From an uncultured bacterium (GTDB lineage Bacteria > Desulfobacterota_D > UBA1144 > Nemesobacterales > UBA2774), in contig CAVPJU010000003.1 of NCBI GenBank assembly GCA_963705505.1, positions 96,001 to 160,000 of the forward strand: a DNA stretch of 64,000 nt, in the 5' to 3' direction. Below, one piece after another: positions 42,001 to 50,762 of this stretch. Numbering within the stretch: position 1 is the first letter of the stretch; every line of letters begins with the position of its first letter. The position numbers are program-made.

Positions 42001-45000
42001 GTTGGGCTCGATTATGAAATATCTGCCGCTCGAATTGTCCAGTTTAAATTCGATCGAGCCTATCCCTCTGAACTTGATCCTGCCGAGCACCTCCGCCGTC
42101 GTATTCAATACCAGATCATTCCTGCATTCTTCGGCCAGGCACGCGTCCCCATCGTCTATAAACCATTGTCTCAGCTTACGCGACGTGAACGTAACCGATT
42201 GATTATAATCCTTATCGTGATAAAAAATGCACGAATACAGGTCGGAATCACTGCCATTAATCCATTCCTGGACTATTACATTCTCTCCCGCTCCAGAGCA
42301 TGTCTCGAACACATCTGAGAGCTCCTGAGGGCTCTTAACTTTAATCACTTTATTTTTAAAATATCTGAACCAGTTTGGGGTCCTCACGACGGGCTTGACT
42401 ATATAAGGGAACTTGGCCTTGTTTAGTATCTCGTCCAAGTCCGATTTGTTCGAGGGAAAGAAGGTAGCGGGGATCGGAAGGCCGTTATCGAACGCATACC
42501 TGTAAAAATTTTGCTTGTTCATATAGAGGTCCAGAACATCCGCGTCGGGGATTACGAAGTTATAGAATTCCCCGAGTCTCTCCCTGTTGTCCGATACAAT
42601 GCGCACACTTTCGTCGCTGCACAGGAAGAGCACGGGCTTTCCCCGCAATTTTCGGGCTAAGCTCAATAACGTATCTAAAAGTTTCGCGTCTGAAGTGTCG
42701 GCAAAGAGAATTTCCTCACATGAATTGGTCTTGCAGCAGTAATGCCCTGGATCATCGGCGATACCGACGACCGGTACTTTATAGCGCGACAATACCCTTG
42801 CTGTATCCAATCCAGTTATGGAATCGAGTTTTATGACGACTGCAGGCGGCCTAATCAATGGTCTCCTGATGAATGCTAAAGAATTTTGATAAGAGGATAT
42901 TATATACGGCTCTGAATTAAAGACGAATACGGAACACTAAATCGAAATCGGCTCATTTAAACCCGTGGATTGCATAGAATTTTAAGGAAGCTCCCAGAGG
43001 TCCTCGTCCGGGAGCGTGATAGGTTCTACGGCTTTGTTATGAAGTTTCCGGATTGGCTATTTTAAAAAATTCTTGACATCGAGCAAAATGAATTCGTTAT
43101 CATCGTTCTTCCCCAGAGTCCGTCCGGACGAATATCCGAAATTGTTATCGTTGGAAACGACTATATGCGTCGGATCGTATATATCGACGCCTTCGACCGT
43201 TTCAAAAGGGAACGTGAATACAGGCCGCTTAGCTTCGAGCCGCGAGACACCGTTGGGGTCTTTTATATCGAGTAAGTCGATATAAGCCACCTTCTTAACG
43301 AATCCGTCCTTGTCTAAATCGCCCATGTCGATCTTATAAATCCGCTTGAATTTCGCGGGATCATCGAAACAATTTCCCGCTGCCGCTTCCTTTTTATTAC
43401 CATCACAGGCGAATCCAGCATCGCCCTCACCGGGATCCCTCTCTATGACAAGCCCCATAGTCTCGTTTATGAGATTAAAATCAGTTACGGAATGACTCTT
43501 ATCTTCAAGAGCGTATTTATATGACTTCCCCGTAAAACCGCCTTTCTCAATATCGAACTCGAAAATCCGGACGTAGTATTTCCCGTCACGGTTCTCAAAC
43601 GATTTGGTCTCTTCGATCCACAACGGCGCTTCTACTATCGGGTACAGGTATCTCCCGTCGGGTGAAACAGCTATGCTCTCAAAACCGCGGGACTTCTTCA
43701 CATCGAATGTCACAACGCCGGGAACCGGAAGAGACTGGAACGTGTAGTGATCGGGAGACCTGAGTATTTTGCCGCCGACATCGAATTCCCAGAATCCGGT
43801 CAGCTTTCCGTCCGGATCAGTGCGAATAATGTAGGGCCCGAACTCATCTCCTATGTACACCGAATCCCCGACCACCTGTATGGACTCGGGATCGATGTCA
43901 GCCCCCGTCAGATAACGCTTCTTGGTCGCCTCATCGGTAATGCGGAAAGGCAGAATCCGGTCGGGGTCATGTAAAAAGACCGTTTGTAAAACCTTTACCT
44001 TACCCTTATCCCAGTCGAACTTAATACGATGGAACATGAGCATCGCGTCGGGCGAGTTTTTGGCGGTGCCGATAACCGTTATCGGTAATTAAAACCGCGG
44101 TGCCGTCTTTTAACATCTTTATGCCGGAAAAACCCTGTAAGGGCTGCCCTTCGATAGGCAGAATAAATATCCTTTACACGGGGCTTATTACGATCCTTCC
44201 CCGATATCGATCCCACCTCGTCCCTCCGTTTCGCATCGGGATGAGTGTATTTGCCCGTAACCTGCAAATGCTCCGGAGCATCACCGGGGAGGCTTAAAAC
44301 AGACATGGCGGGAATGATTGCGTGGGCGGAGAGGACGGCTTCGACTTTCTCCTGCTCCCGATGCTAAAGGAGAGAAATAAAGGGTGACTGTTAATAGAAT
44401 CAACGCAGAGATAAATGTCCGGTTTCTCACTCCCGGTAAAAATACTTTAATTGCGGATTTGTTTCCAGATGCCGCCTGAATATTGAAATTGGCTCAATTA
44501 GATTGATTAGAACGCGTCAGGATTCACGAAACCGACCTTCAGAGCAGCTTCGCGAGGTCTTCGTCCGAGAGCTCGATGGGCTCGACGGCCTCGTTGATGT
44601 TCTTTCTGAAATTGGAGAGGCTCTCTCCGAGGAGATAGCATGTGAGGAGGGACCTTATGTGCTTGTGCATTATTACGAGAACCTTTTCACCGGGATACCT
44701 GAGAGCGATCTCCCGGATCGTCTTCCTGATGCGCGTCTGGACTTCCTCGAGGGTTTCAGGTCCGTTCGGTATCGGTATGCTCGTAATCCCGTCTATGAAC
44801 CATTCCCTGAACCTGGTGGACGGGTCGCTCAGAAGGTCTTCGTATTTCTGTCCGTTCCAGTCCCCGTGATCCAGCTCCCGTAAACCCTGGTGAACGTCGA
44901 GCGGTATTTTCAGATTGTCCGCATAGTACTGCGAGGTCTGCCGGGCGCGCTTGAGGGGACTCGAAACTATCCTGTCGAATTCGTACTTTTCCACTATGGG

Positions 45001-48000: not shown

Positions 48001-50762
48001 AAGACTCAGCTCACATCAAAATAAATAAGCATCCGCCTCGTTATTTCAAGGTAAATCTCTATAATCCTTCTGCCGACATTATCCTGAGCGCACCGGGTGC
48101 GACCTCGATCCTGTGCGTGCCGGGGTCGATGTAAAAAGGCTCCCCGTCCATGTGAGCGGGCTCCGGGCGCTCGAGAGTTATTTCCATCCGCGGCCCTGTT
48201 CGCAGCTCCACCTCCGCGAGGCCCGAATGGGTCCCCTTGAGCACTTTCGGAATTTTGATGAGCCTCTGTAAAGGCGGCATATCCTTTATGATGTGGAAAT
48301 CCAAAAGCCCGTCGTCCACTTTAGCCCCCGGGGCGAGTTTGAACTTCCCGCCCTGATATACGCCGTTCGATGCCCCCGTCAGAAGAAGCGTGCCTGAGTA
48401 TTTCCAGCCCCCTATCGCAATCTCGGTCCGGAACCCCTTGAAGGAAAAGGCTTCCTGAACCGCCCCCAGTAAATAGCCCAACTGTCCGCGGAACCGCTTG
48501 AGCTTCTTGAACCGGTGGGATACGGCCCCGTCAAGCCCGATACCGAGCCCGTTGATAAAATAGATGTCCCCCAGTTTACCCACGTCCACCGAGCGCTCAC
48601 GCCCCGAAAAAACGGTTTCTACCGCCTGGGCGGTTTCGAGCGGAATACCGGCTGATTTGGGGAAGTCGTTGCCGCTCCCCGACGGAATCGTCCCGAAAAT
48701 CAGGGGCGACCCCATGATACCGTTCACGACCTCGTGAGAAGTCCCGTCCCCCCCGACCGCGACGATATGAGTAAAGCCGCCGGAGAGGGCGTCCCTTGCG
48801 AAAGCCTCCGCATCACCCTGTCCTGACGTGAATCTGCACTCAAACGCAACGTCCCGGTTCTCGAGCAGGGGTATTATCGAGTCGAACAAGCCGGCCGTCC
48901 TGCCCTGTCCCGCAGCCGGATTGACAATGAACAAATATTTTGCGTCTTTCAAATTCTGGCCTTTCAAGTAAAATCTAAGAAGCATAAAACATAGCATTTT
49001 TCAACATCGTTTACAAAGCAAACCGTCGAGATACTTGAAATAGGCTATATTATATGTTAATAAAGTTCGTTTTATCCAAATAAAAATCGGTATAAATCAG
49101 GAGGCATTTTAATGGTAGAAGAAATCCAGCCTACCGAACAGGTGAATGAGGTCATAAGCATGAAACAGCTTCTCGAAGCGGGGGTTCATTTCGGCCACCA
49201 GATAAGCCACTGGAACCCGAAAATGAAGGAATATATTTTCGGGAGCAGGAACGGCATACACATCATCGATCTTCAGCAGACCGTGGGTCTCTTCAAAAAG
49301 TCCTACAACTTCGTGAGAGATGTTGTTGCTAACGGCGGGGAAGTACTGTTCGTAGGGACCAAGAAGCAGGCGCAGGGCATAATAGCGGAGGAGACCACGC
49401 GCTCCGGCATGCCTTACGTAAACACCCGCTGGCTCGGGGGCACGCTTACAAACTTTCACACCATCAGATCACGCGTTGACTACCTGCTCGAACTAAAGAA
49501 GCTCGAAGAGGAAGGGCAGATGGAGCGGCTGCCCAAGAAAGAAGCCAAGGGATTAAAGAGGGAGATCCAGAAGCTCGAACTGCTGCTGGGCGGCATAGTG
49601 AATATGAAGAGGATCCCGAATATATTGTATATCGTCGATACGAGAAAAGAACATATAGCGGTTCACGAGGCGAGGAGGCTCGGCATTCCGATCGTCGCCG
49701 TAGTGGATACCAATTCCGACCCTGCTGACGCCGATTTCGTAATCCCCAGCAACGACGACGCCATCAGGGCTATAAAACTTTTCACGTCCAGGATCGCGGA
49801 CGCATGCGTTGAGGGAAAGCACGCCTACGAACAGAAGCTCCAGGCGGGAGAAGTCGTCAGAAAGCGGGACGAAGGCCAGGTCATAGTCGAAAGGAAGGTC
49901 TTCGTGTTCAAGGAATTCGGAGAAGAACCCGAAAAAGAGGTAACGACGTCCGTTGCGGTATCGGAAAGCAGTACGGGCGTGGAGACGCCTCACCACGGAG
50001 AGCCGGAAAAGAAAGATAAGCCGGCCGCCAAACCTAAAGCGCCGACGCCGACAAAGAGCGCTGAAGAAGAGGAAGATACCTATACCTACACTCATACCGA
50101 TAAAGTCGAATAATTTGCGGTTCGATCCGAATGAGGGACATCACGGAAGAAACACAGGAGGAATTGTTACGAAATGGCAGATATTACGGCGCAGATGGTA
50201 AAGGAAATAAGAGACAGAACCGGCGCACCTTTTATCGATTGCAAAAAGGCTCTCGAAGAAGTTGCCGGGGACTTCGATAAGGCAATCGAGATACTCAAAA
50301 TAAAAGGTGTTGCGAAAGCGGCGAAAAAAGTCGGAAGAGAAACACCGGAAGGAACGATCACCTCATATATACATGCGGGCGGAAAGATCGGGGTGCTTGT
50401 AGAAATCAACTGCGAGACCGATTTTGTTGCGAGGAATGAGGAATTTCAGGCATTCGCAAAAGAGGTTGCCATGCAGATCGCTGCAGGAAACCCGAGGTAT
50501 ATAAGCCGGGAGTCCATTCCCGAAGAGGTGCTTTCGAAGGAAAAAGAAATTATGAAAGCCCAGGTAATAGAATCGGGCAAGCCCGCAAACATCGCGGATA
50601 AAATCGCCGAAGGCAAAATAGAAAAATTTTACGAGGAGGTCTGCCTGGTCGACCAGGTATACATAAGGGACTCCAAGGTAAAGATCAGCGACCTGCTGCA
50701 GGCGCTCATAGCGAAGATCGGAGAAAATATAAAGATAAGAAGATTTGTACGGTTTCAGTTAG

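Follow-up and report, generated by a model that had tools for sequence, protein, structure and literature searches.

The locus of gene X and its predicted protein

The window, meaning the whole stretch of 64,000 nucleotides that was analysed, carries a group of four genes on the minus strand, to which all features below also belong. In the direction of transcription these are a YegS-type kinase (48059..48997; TIGR00147 163 bits against a cut-off of 119, with PF00781 and PF19279), a PlsC-type acyltransferase that we call type A (47184..47906; PF01553 110 bits, TIGR00530 98.5 against a cut-off of 103), gene X (g00552, 45234..46922, 562 aa from its ATG), and a histidine phosphatase of branch 1 (44539..45138; PF00300 147 bits). 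The initial annotation had described them as one operon. The gene order holds. A single operon is only putative: the intergenic gaps measure 152, 261 and 95 bp, and a sigma-70-like site lies between plsC and X (47078..47106, consensus match 10/12), from which X may have a promoter of its own; the underlying scan used the consensus only, and its count of 6 sites is near the chance expectation of 3.9. Judged by profile matches, the type A PlsC is the sole canonical PlsC of this genome; of the three other PF01553 matches, two are OlsA-like proteins and one is a multidomain protein of 876 aa.

We then compared 18 chosen X loci. plsC is the immediate upstream neighbour of X in 16 of them, and yegS lies within the X locus in 16 as well. 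The phosphatase, which had been counted as a member of the locus, adjoins X in only 8 of the 18, all from families f1 and f2. Among the Patescibacteria loci, L199 also has it directly 5' of X. Possibly, and this is speculative, it is an accessory enzyme that removes a phosphorylated by-product.

X has no NCBIfam family, and its single Pfam row (E 0.034) lies under the cut-off. PF00596 does not match X up to E 1, nor does it occur in any of the 101 genomes of the order; no CoaB family HMM of Pfam or NCBIfam matches X, so that these searches give no hint of the CTP-dependent ligase motifs of CoaB, and no PDB sequence matches the X profile below E 0.5. Both domains reported earlier were recovered in the predicted model (pLDDT 92.8). 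We describe X as a predicted NglG-like metalloenzyme with a CoaB-like N domain and a class II aldolase-fold domain. Residues 252-557 (45252..46169) match class II aldolases with Z 13.1, rmsd 3.6-4.0 and 169-192 aligned residues (FucA 2opi, RhaD 1gt7), the best Foldseek E for this fold being 6e-4. In the same whole model, residues 36-240 match CoaB-type domains (Z 9.1, rmsd 4.0, 147 aligned). When the N domain (residues 28-246, 46185..46841) was modelled alone (pLDDT 92.5), it again gave a putatively CoaB-like three-layer fold, and its best six structural rows were all CoaB/PPC synthetase (Z 7.7-8.7, rmsd 3.6-4.4, 147-156 aligned), with the next unrelated rows at Z 7.5. Nevertheless, its identity to the CoaB phosphopantothenoylcysteine synthetase domain is only 7-14%, the margin over receiver and B12-binding domains is about 1 Z, and few residues of the N domain are invariant. 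N211 and K233 of this domain occur in 167/167 locus copies. We propose the N domain as a putative pantetheine or ACP binding site.

The histidine triad had been called intact, and H445, H447 and H505 are indeed invariant in 93/93 aligned proteins and in 166/167 locus copies (one gap); this conservation predicts a metal site of the HxH...H type. Asp418, Cys471, Glu502, Arg301 and Lys379 are likewise invariant in 93/93 proteins and in 166-167 of 167 locus copies. X resembles the class II aldolase/adducin superfamily (FucA, RhaD, AraD, MtnB/APIP, OtnC/YgbL, NovR, POD, TqaM) in fold (Z 9.7-13.1), in the triad and in the SG and PS motifs, but it differs in having no PF00596 match, an invariant Cys, long insertions and the extra N domain. 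FucA has a catalytic Glu and a phosphate site of Asn, Thr, Ser and Ser. A reading of motifs, rather than a superposition, gives D418 in place of the Glu, F/Y308 in place of the Asn and F/Y417 in place of the second Ser, while S375 and S416 are retained; the Asn position is Phe or Tyr in 167/167 X copies. By these motifs X lacks the catalytic Glu and the full phosphate site, and would not be FucA or RhaD proper.

Entry genes of phospholipid synthesis in the phylum

In the textbook view, bacterial phospholipid synthesis starts at glycerol-3-phosphate (G3P), and the known entries are GpsA with PlsX/PlsY or PlsB, and the eukaryotic GNPAT acyl-DHAP route. X would act at the same metabolic place, upstream of PlsC and CdsA, yet none of the domains of those enzymes is found in it. 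Our survey set comprised 120 genomes of the phylum (Dadabacteria), and the previously reported counts were all reproduced: X in 89 genomes, GpsA (PF07479) in 31, PlsX in 8 (none of them with X), PlsY in 1 as a partial match, and FGGY/GlpK in 0 of 5 X genomes. By genome, 85 have X alone, 27 GpsA alone, 4 both and 4 neither. The GlpD C-terminal domain was also absent from 5/5 X genomes. The genome studied here has no GpsA, PlsX or PlsY; a PF13685 match in it, considered as a G1P dehydrogenase, was rejected as AroB. Downstream, as had been stated, the pathway is kept: CdsA occurs in 113/120 genomes with ordinary scores, PssA scores above its cut-off in this genome and Lgt is present in 5/5 X genomes, and the gene adjoining pssA here is taken to be psd, judging only by where it lies and how its sequence begins. 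X genomes would need another entry, because 81 of the 89 lack GpsA, PlsX, PlsY and the acyltransferase described next as type B, GlpK and GlpD are missing from all five examined, and CdsA is kept.

X had been proposed to stand in for GpsA and PlsX across the order. Its probable role as a stand-in for GpsA survives, whereas the scope does not: the 120 genomes represent the phylum, and 19 of the 27 that have GpsA alone belong to a single family from outside the order. PlsX is also absent from these 19, which lack X as well, so X is not the counterpart of PlsX. plsX occupies the slot between rpmF and fabD in 5/5 PlsX loci viewed; in this genome the slot is closed, as noted before, with 34 bp from the rpmF stop to the fabD start. 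The better counterpart of X is PlsC type B, a second PlsC-type acyltransferase present in 27/27 GpsA-only genomes and missing in 84/89 X genomes (5 retain it). In family f6, six X genomes have a single PF01553 match each and retain CdsA and three CDP-alcohol transferases. X is present in near-complete genomes of 1.2-1.6 Mb. Because 81/89 X genomes are without all four entry genes and f6 has one PF01553 match per genome, X is very likely the source of the lipid backbone in genomes that lack GpsA. The distribution of type B, together with f6, further suggests that X replaces two steps, namely GpsA and the first acyltransferase.

The YegS kinase is closely tied to X. Its orthologue occurs in 90/120 genomes, comprising 89/89 X genomes (unlinked cases too) and G082, whose contig stops 115 bp past plsC, and in 0 of the other 30. 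A kinase per se is not specific to X, since two PlsX genomes that we inspected carry, close to plsC, a divergent gene with a DAGK domain. The exceptions to the exclusion between X and GpsA are mostly explicable. In two of the four genomes with both, GpsA is divergent (25-27% identity) and lies inside clusters of the glycerophosphate or Stealth capsule type, and the GpsA of G100 is accompanied by its own acyltransferase, a setting one would expect if these genomes had to acquire G3P separately. The earlier caution about few lineage splits was right: the exclusion maps to about three lineages on a weakly supported tree. A GarR-like neighbour gene is found in 77/89 X genomes and is absent in all 6 of f6, and no reductase common to all 89 X genomes was found.

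Relatives of X and a proposed link to NglG

The relatives of X include a Nostoc protein from an ngl-type cluster (P0530), which shares 44% identity with it along 560 aa (E 1e-160). NglG (Npun_F3362, UniProt B2J018) belongs to the nostochloroside cluster of Nostoc punctiforme ATCC 29133, and its role as a chain-release aldolase is a hypothesis of its authors (PMC10849952, Supplementary Note 3). It has 620 aa, with an N-terminal TubC docking domain and aldolase templates at 445-598; the ketosynthase NglF carries H344Q, and nostochloroside is a C21 chain that ends in a vicinal 1,2-diol and is built from a C20 unit plus one carbon (PMC10849952). The cyanobacterial relatives of X have aldolase motifs at 448-580 and carry the TubC_N docking domain (PF18563). 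The ngl cluster order is PKS-PKS-KS*PKS-NglG-SDR, which these relatives share, and the PKS with fused ACP that precedes them has an H-to-Q change at 341-345 or 371 in 9/9 cases (C-Q-H), while upstream modules keep the His in 4/4. Like NglG, X has an aldolase-type domain in the same region, and its relatives have TubC_N, a C-Q-H PKS neighbour and an SDR behind; X itself has neither docking domain nor PKS and adjoins yegS and plsC. The name NglG-like is based on this architecture and gene order, rather than on a comparison with the NglG sequence. Since X follows the loss of GpsA and PlsC type B and sits by yegS and plsC, its context points to primary membrane synthesis.

Of 68 loci of X relatives outside the phylum, 47 have an ACP of a type of its own (scoring 106-130 bits, whereas other PKS ACPs score 26-44) at most 3 ORFs upstream, suggesting that the acyl donor of these relatives is ACP-bound, and 26 have an SDR immediately 3'. 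Full-length plasmid-borne matches to X come from Nostoc and Gloeothece only. In Patescibacteria, X stands between plsC and a HisKA_7TM kinase, which is 3' of X in 61/78 loci; among five such genomes, CdsA was found in none and ACP was missing in 4. Five X carriers of a Bacteroidota group retain GpsA. Outside Dadabacteria, in these two groups, X is not the phospholipid entry.

A proposed diol route and competing explanations

We consider it fairly probable that X converts acyl-ACP into a 1-hydroxy-2-alkanone, which after reduction and the action of YegS and PlsC gives a diol-based phosphatidate mimic for CdsA. X would be an NglG-type chain-release enzyme with which the making of membrane lipids begins: it would take a long acyl chain off ACP and add a hydroxymethyl carbon at the thioester carbon, a one-carbon extension modelled on the structure of nostochloroside. 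In the chemistry that we regard as most likely, with about an even chance within the diol model, the acyl group would move onto the invariant Cys471 while DHAP or a different ketose phosphate is bound as its enediolate by the metal of the His triad; after C-acylation, retro-aldol or retro-Claisen cleavage would free the hydroxyketone. Alternatively, a 3-oxoacyl chain could undergo metal-dependent hydroxylation and decarboxylation. A reductase would then yield the 1,2-diol. YegS would place a phosphate on O1, acting either on the diol or on its 2-acyl form, and the type A PlsC would acylate O2. The resulting 2-acyl-alkanediol-1-phosphate would enter CdsA, PssA/Psd and PIP synthase, so that GpsA and the first acyltransferase are replaced together. 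The presence of YegS in 89/89 X genomes supports a diol, because a diol needs a kinase and the G3P route does not. The initial annotation had envisaged a new backbone route starting probably from DHAP. The supply of a backbone is upheld, rebuilding glycerol from DHAP is not, and DHAP is left only as a candidate one-carbon donor.

Long-chain 1,2-diol membranes have been known in Thermomicrobia since 1986; Thermomicrobium roseum has exclusively 1,2-diol lipids and no plsB, and the pathway was called unclear (PMC2615216). Nitrolancea hollandica contains C20 diols, with the head group at O1 and the acyl chain at O2, alongside a C19 fatty acid (PMC3504966), which fits a chemistry that adds one carbon. 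The lipid class predicted here from genes is the same; of the 20 papers listed, out of 63 on Dadabacteria and lipids, none has a title that concerns their membrane lipids. The logic also recalls the known entry to sphingolipids. That entry uses serine palmitoyltransferase, a ketoreductase and a DAGK-family kinase, and there too an acyl thioester and a small polar donor are joined C-C, the ketone is reduced, and a kinase and an acyltransferase follow; the enzyme is, however, PLP-dependent and the backbone bears nitrogen, whereas X has a metal aldolase fold and its predicted product no nitrogen. As a separate matter, canonical PgsA is missing throughout the order, PlsX genomes included, although the usual donor for Lgt is phosphatidylglycerol. 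That Lgt is kept is a puzzle under every model and counts against the diol reading too. Also weighing against this reading are the lack of a reductase common to the X genomes, the five X genomes with type B, the DAGK-domain genes of two PlsX genomes, the Patescibacteria and Bacteroidota-group carriers, the few lineages behind the exclusion, and the ornithine-lipid genes and ceramide-type fusion of this genome.

Taken further, it is possible, though we hold this only tentatively, that the long-sought synthase of long-chain 1,2-diols in bacteria is X/NglG, a metal-dependent aldolase-fold enzyme that lengthens an acyl thioester by one carbon. In that case most Dadabacteria would make all their phospholipids on a glycerol-free diol by means of three clustered genes, and in cyanobacteria hundreds of PKS and Pfa-type lines would terminate by this chemistry. 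Patescibacteria, without CdsA and mostly without ACP, would employ plsC-X and the adjoining 7TM kinase to produce and sense a lipid or signal of diol type, drawing on acyl chains from the host. The finding puts forward three candidate genes (yegS, plsC, X) for 1,2-diol lipids whose biosynthesis lacks explanation, predicts a glycerol-free membrane in Dadabacteria and suggests what kind of product many orphan cyanobacterial clusters are likely to make. It also offers a starting point for studying how Patescibacteria handle lipids. The link to nglG of N. punctiforme, which is cultured and genetically tractable, makes the question testable. What is new is the pathway; the diol molecules and the published proposal for NglG in a secondary-metabolite cluster are already known. 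We found no description of such a pathway in the literature, most subscription journals being outside our coverage.

We regard it as unlikely that the product of X is an accessory lipid or signal of diol type, as seems to be the case for its relatives, with the bulk membrane consisting of ornithine lipids, scavenged lipids or ceramide and the exclusion of GpsA reflecting lineage history. The Patescibacteria loci with their 7TM kinase and without CdsA, the accessory setting of X in cyanobacteria-type clusters and the Bacteroidota group, and the few independent switches are consistent with it, as are the olsB/olsA-like ornithine-lipid genes and the Spt-bCerS-like ceramide-type fusion of this genome. 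However, f6, with its one PF01553 match, has no separate OlsA and keeps CdsA and three CDP-alcohol transferases, and X is retained in the near-complete genomes of 1.2-1.6 Mb. With this query the bCerS-like domain was not found in 4/5 X genomes, and the shared Spt-like match adjoins bioA/bioB-like genes in this genome, a biotin-cluster context; a ceramide pathway (Spt, bCerS) is not a general trait of X genomes.

An improbable alternative, resembling the eukaryotic acyl-DHAP route and near the earlier DHAP idea, makes X a metal-dependent DHAP O-acyltransferase that forms acyl-DHAP from acyl-ACP and DHAP, with a separate reductase giving lysophosphatidate and ordinary glycerophospholipids. It would likewise replace both GpsA and the acyltransferase of the first step; moreover, DHAP is a ligand of class II aldolases, an SDR lies 3' of X relatives in 26/68 loci, and CdsA and Lgt would have their normal substrates. 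Yet the sole known product of an X-type cluster is a C-C-linked terminal diol and no glycerol ester, the strict tie to YegS is left unexplained, and the X genomes have no reductase in common.

Finally, it is very improbable that X is a class II aldolase acting after MtnA on 5-deoxyribulose-1-phosphate or methylthioribulose-1-phosphate with no lipid role, an option raised earlier that accords with MtnA in 116/120 genomes and with the lack of any PF00596 match in X genomes, but is weakened by the Phe/Tyr at the FucA Asn position, by lipid genes neighbouring X in three distant groups, by the family f9 PF00596 protein, which adjoins a nucleotide-sugar epimerase-like gene and has no profile match to X (probability 0.1), and by 8/8 PlsX genomes that have MtnA and neither X nor PF00596.

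Distribution of X and of glycerol 3-phosphate enzymes

A phylum-wide search of 120 genomes found X, the 562-aa protein g00552, in 89 genomes, GpsA in 31, PlsX in eight and PlsY in one, as a partial match. CdsA was present in 113 of the 120. The co-occurrence counts claimed by the initial annotation were recovered exactly: 85 genomes have X alone, 27 GpsA alone, four both and four neither. The original observation is real and is stronger than first claimed. Beside these counts, neither a GlpK-type kinase nor GlpD turned up in any of five X genomes, confirming the reported absence of glpK, and Lgt occurred in all five, with two copies in four. 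The rpmF-fabD slot, in which plsX sits in all five PlsX loci viewed, is closed in the present genome (34 bp), as had been noted. On the other hand, the suggestion that X also stands in for PlsX had to be dropped, since PlsX and PlsY are both missing from 19 of the 27 genomes with GpsA only; these 19 form family f9, which lies outside the order.

The phylum has two PlsC-type paralogues: type A, which lies beside X, or elsewhere in GpsA genomes, and type B, which lies beside gatB. Type B is found in 33 genomes, namely all 27 GpsA-only genomes, G010 and five X genomes, and was not found in 84 of the 89 X genomes; its presence in every GpsA-only genome and its absence from most X genomes make it likely that type B is the first acyltransferase of the glycerol 3-phosphate (G3P) route. 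None of GpsA, PlsX, PlsY and type B was found in 81 of the 89 X genomes. As all 27 GpsA-only genomes lack PlsY, type B (L249:5369-6118 and its orthologues, in G002 and 32 other genomes) is a candidate for a separate type of small G3P acyltransferase. Each of the six genomes of family f6, three of them single contigs, has one PF01553 match; in the present genome only one such match is a canonical PlsC, while two others are OlsA-like and another belongs to a multidomain protein of 876 aa. An orthologue of the YegS-type kinase accompanies X in 89 of 89 genomes and occurs in G082, and in none of the 30 others; a divergent DAGK-domain gene was seen in the two PlsX genomes checked.

The exceptions to the GpsA/X pattern are G082, G046, G091 and G010. 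The contig of G082 stops 115 bp after plsC, and the X locus is probably unassembled in G046 and G091, because both are without a strong type A match and without yegS. For three of the four genomes with both genes, the gpsA neighbours were viewed: GpsA adjoins a CDP-glycerol glycerophosphotransferase in G030, a Stealth protein and a nucleotidyltransferase in G021, and a separate acyltransferase in G100. These gpsA copies (loci L257, L256 and L255, respectively) resemble imports with acyltransferase or capsule-type glycerophosphate genes. A tree built from two markers covered 30 genomes, representing 30 of 32 genera, with CdsA missing for G021; in it the GpsA-bearing genomes that lack X took three separate positions, and support along the backbone was 25-68. 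The mutual exclusion therefore rests on about three lineages, in line with the earlier caution that it follows few lineage splits.

Locus, fold and conserved residues of X

The four genes were all found where they had been placed, on the minus strand: the YegS-type kinase, a proposed lipid kinase (48059-48997), the PlsC acyltransferase upstream of X (47184-47906), X itself (45234-46922) and a histidine phosphatase downstream (44539-45138). They are same-strand neighbours, but gaps of 152, 261 and 95 bp and a promoter-like site before X leave their description as a single operon unsupported. Among 18 loci picked from well-assembled genomes, the phosphatase adjoins X in only eight. A 392-aa ATP-grasp-like protein is encoded at 41680-42858 of the window (minus strand) with weak Pfam rows only, and in locus L066 a homologue comes after the phosphatase. 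At L260 (G047:C1:811909-812900), yegS and plsC are interrupted by stops or frame changes next to an intact X, through either assembly error or real decay. Apparent fusions of X in family f8 (open frames of 694-899 aa) were rejected, X being a separate ORF of 550-582 aa in the four such loci viewed.

X matched no NCBIfam family and, in Pfam, gave one row below the cut-off. Searches of family and sequence libraries turned up nothing for X, and the protein atlas gave no usable match for X or P0189; close homologues carry the NCBI names Candidatus Dadabacteria or Thermodesulfobacteriota. In the predicted model (pLDDT 92.8), residues 252-557 resemble class II aldolases (Z 13.1). When the N domain was folded alone, six CoaB-type chains ranked first, with Z 7.7-8.7 and a lead of only about 1 over unrelated matches, and this slim margin makes "CoaB-like" the name of a fold and not of a function. 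Fifteen residues are invariant in 93 proteins (R301, G307, S375, G376, K379, D387, S416, D418, H445, H447, G463, C471, E502, H505 and G506), and those rechecked were kept in 166-167 of 167 locus copies. We compared X with FucA at the positions that we take to be the catalytic Glu and the phosphate site of the latter. The His triad is shared, whereas in X the catalytic Glu is replaced by Asp, half of the phosphate site by aromatic residues, and an invariant Cys is present.

Relatives of X in other phyla

The full search gave 135 representatives in three groups: the phylum of the present genome, one about 44% identical to X and one about 25% identical. The two scans of the collection, run with narrower alignments, retained 80 relatives out of 91 and 80 out of 271, so that further lineages with X may exist. 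The second group is largely cyanobacterial and carries a TubC docking domain. Its 68 loci (80 metagenome and two plasmid loci minus 14 of the own-phylum type) have a distinct ACP, free or at the end of a PKS, at most three ORFs upstream of the X relative in 47 cases, whereas ten loci end before any upstream ORF; in 26 the next gene downstream is an SDR. The chain-building parts vary, being either a fatty acyl-AMP ligase with a PKS or PfaA/PfaD-type proteins with a PapA5-like acyltransferase, and glycosyltransferases come after. Of 38 neighbour families that recur in the clusters, 22 were scanned, and none of these is a thioesterase. In five cyanobacteria-type loci (L086, L099, L079, L077 and L110), the predicted products of PfaA-PKS-PfaD-PapA5-like acyltransferase-ACP-X clusters are very-long-chain 1,2-diol lipids that carry acyl groups, and the conserved C-terminal tail of their ACP may pair with the TubC-type docking domain.

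This architecture recalls the nostochlorosides of Nostoc punctiforme, for which one report (PMC10849952) describes a straight C21 chain from palmitate with a C6 hydroxyl, a C12 chlorine and, at its end, a vicinal diol whose O1 is glycosylated. According to the same source, two PKS modules of the ngl line would give C20, the third module has a C-Q-H ketosynthase (H344Q) and no thioesterase domain is present. NglG (Npun_F3362), which has a docking domain and a predicted aldolase domain (templates 445-598), is proposed there to terminate the line through C-C cleavage once a sugar has been incorporated, and an SDR would act next. In our loci, the PKS with a fused ACP before the X relative has Gln at that His in nine of nine cases, two of them at residue 344, and upstream PKS modules keep His in four of four. 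The X relatives have aldolase motifs at 448-580, the gene order agrees with the ngl cluster, and the relative encoded in the cluster of Nostoc sp. UHCC 0926 shares 44% identity with X across 560 residues. The case that the X relatives are of the NglG type, identified by their architecture, is strong but indirect. Two ngl-like clusters lie on plasmids of cultured strains: that of Gloeothece verrucosa PCC 7822 (L228) has a sulfotransferase behind the X relative and SDR, and that of Nostoc sp. UHCC 0926 (L229) encodes a UDP-galactopyranose mutase-like protein as well as two GT28 enzymes. Heterocyte glycolipids were set aside as analogues, as PMC11804610 shows 1,3-diols and "TubC", "aldolase" and "PapA5" are missing from its main text.

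The third group is mostly from Patescibacteria. Among 78 such loci in which the ORF of the X homologue was called (70 with more than 900 bp upstream), plsC lay within 2.5 kb upstream in 36, an acyl-CoA ligase lay upstream in five and a HisKA_7TM kinase started right behind in 61; NHxxxxD is kept in all 45 plsC copies. In five Patescibacteria genomes with an X homologue, neither CdsA nor GpsA was found, and ACP gave a single weak match at most. GpsA is kept in five X carriers of the Bacteroidota group. X thus goes with acyl-chain genes in three distant groups, but would be the entry to CDP-lipids only in its own phylum. The conserved Patescibacteria arrangement of plsC, X homologue and HisKA_7TM kinase (L148-L227) occurs where CdsA, and mostly ACP too, is missing, and it looks like a synthase of a signal paired with its receptor. 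A quorum-sensing reading of this plsC as HdtS stayed a lead only: PMC7567580 gives HdtS homologues, and its main text is without "HisKA" or "7TM". X homologues also occur in archaeal-titled records (Thermoplasmatales or Thermoplasmata; L198, L207) and in the Bacteroidota group (titles Rhodothermales, Chlorobiales or Ignavibacteria; L219-L227); in three loci the gene immediately upstream is an SDR.

A putative 1,2-diol route and alternative readings

X very probably starts membrane lipid synthesis in these genomes. That the backbone is a 1,2-diol we regard as the likeliest reading, with moderate confidence. A C20 acyl chain plus one carbon, with oxygen at C1 and C2, suggests that a hydroxymethyl group is added to the thioester carbon and that reduction comes next. 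X would thus act on acyl-ACP, supplied by the ordinary fatty acid synthase, to form a 1-hydroxy-2-alkanone, and a reductase would convert it to the 1,2-diol. The fatty acid synthase region contains fabD, fabG, acpP and fabF-like genes. YegS would then phosphorylate O1 and PlsC acylate O2, and the 2-acyl diol phosphate would mimic phosphatidate for CdsA, PssA/Psd and a PIP synthase-like enzyme. Such a route would explain why GpsA and type B are lost together, why a single PlsC is enough and why the kinase goes with X; the five X genomes that keep type B count against it. Diol lipids have precedents: T. roseum is described as having 1,2-diol lipids only, without plsB, by a process that "remains to be clarified" (PMC2615216), and Nitrolancea as having C20 diols that bear the head group on O1 and, on O2, mostly a C19 acid (PMC3504966).

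For the added carbon, our first choice would be the enediolate of DHAP or a ketose phosphate, with an acyl-Cys471 intermediate. The second choice would be hydroxylation and decarboxylation of a 3-oxoacyl chain, reactions that some aldolase-fold oxygenases and decarboxylases carry out. As the reductase of the diol route, a GarR-like dehydrogenase, encoded behind X in families f4 and f8, occurs in 77 of the 89 X genomes and two of the 31 others; it was rejected as obligatory because the f6 X genomes lack it. High-scoring PgsA is confined to 15 of the 19 f9 genomes. Families f1-f8, which make up the order, have none among their matches, yet Lgt is kept in the five X genomes examined, which counts against the diol route; the present genome encodes the PIP synthase-like enzyme at G000:C6:37860-38651. 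A nucleotidyltransferase and an IPCT/DIPPS-like CDP-alcohol phosphotransferase, on weak matches only, lie at G000:C3:315516-317616.

Counting likewise against the diol route, the present genome has ornithine-lipid genes and an Spt-bCerS-like fusion, a 927-aa protein with Spt/BioF-type and bCerS-like domains encoded beyond the window (L337:1592-4375, G000:C3). A general sphingolipid route was not supported, as the bCerS-like domain was found in one of five X genomes, and in the present genome the Spt-like match that they share lies among biotin genes. The alternative raised initially, that the aldolase domain serves 5-deoxyribulose-1-phosphate downstream of MtnA, is contradicted by all eight PlsX genomes, which have MtnA without X or PF00596, and by the neighbours of X. 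A G1P dehydrogenase was dismissed for the present genome, whose PF13685 match is 66% identical to AroB; the matches in four other genomes scored lower. An aldolase of f9 was likewise dismissed as a replacement for X, having no profile match to it; this 370-aa class II aldolase, unrelated to X by profile, is present in 18 of the 19 streamlined f9 genomes (L268-L279), where its neighbour is a nucleotide-sugar epimerase-like gene.
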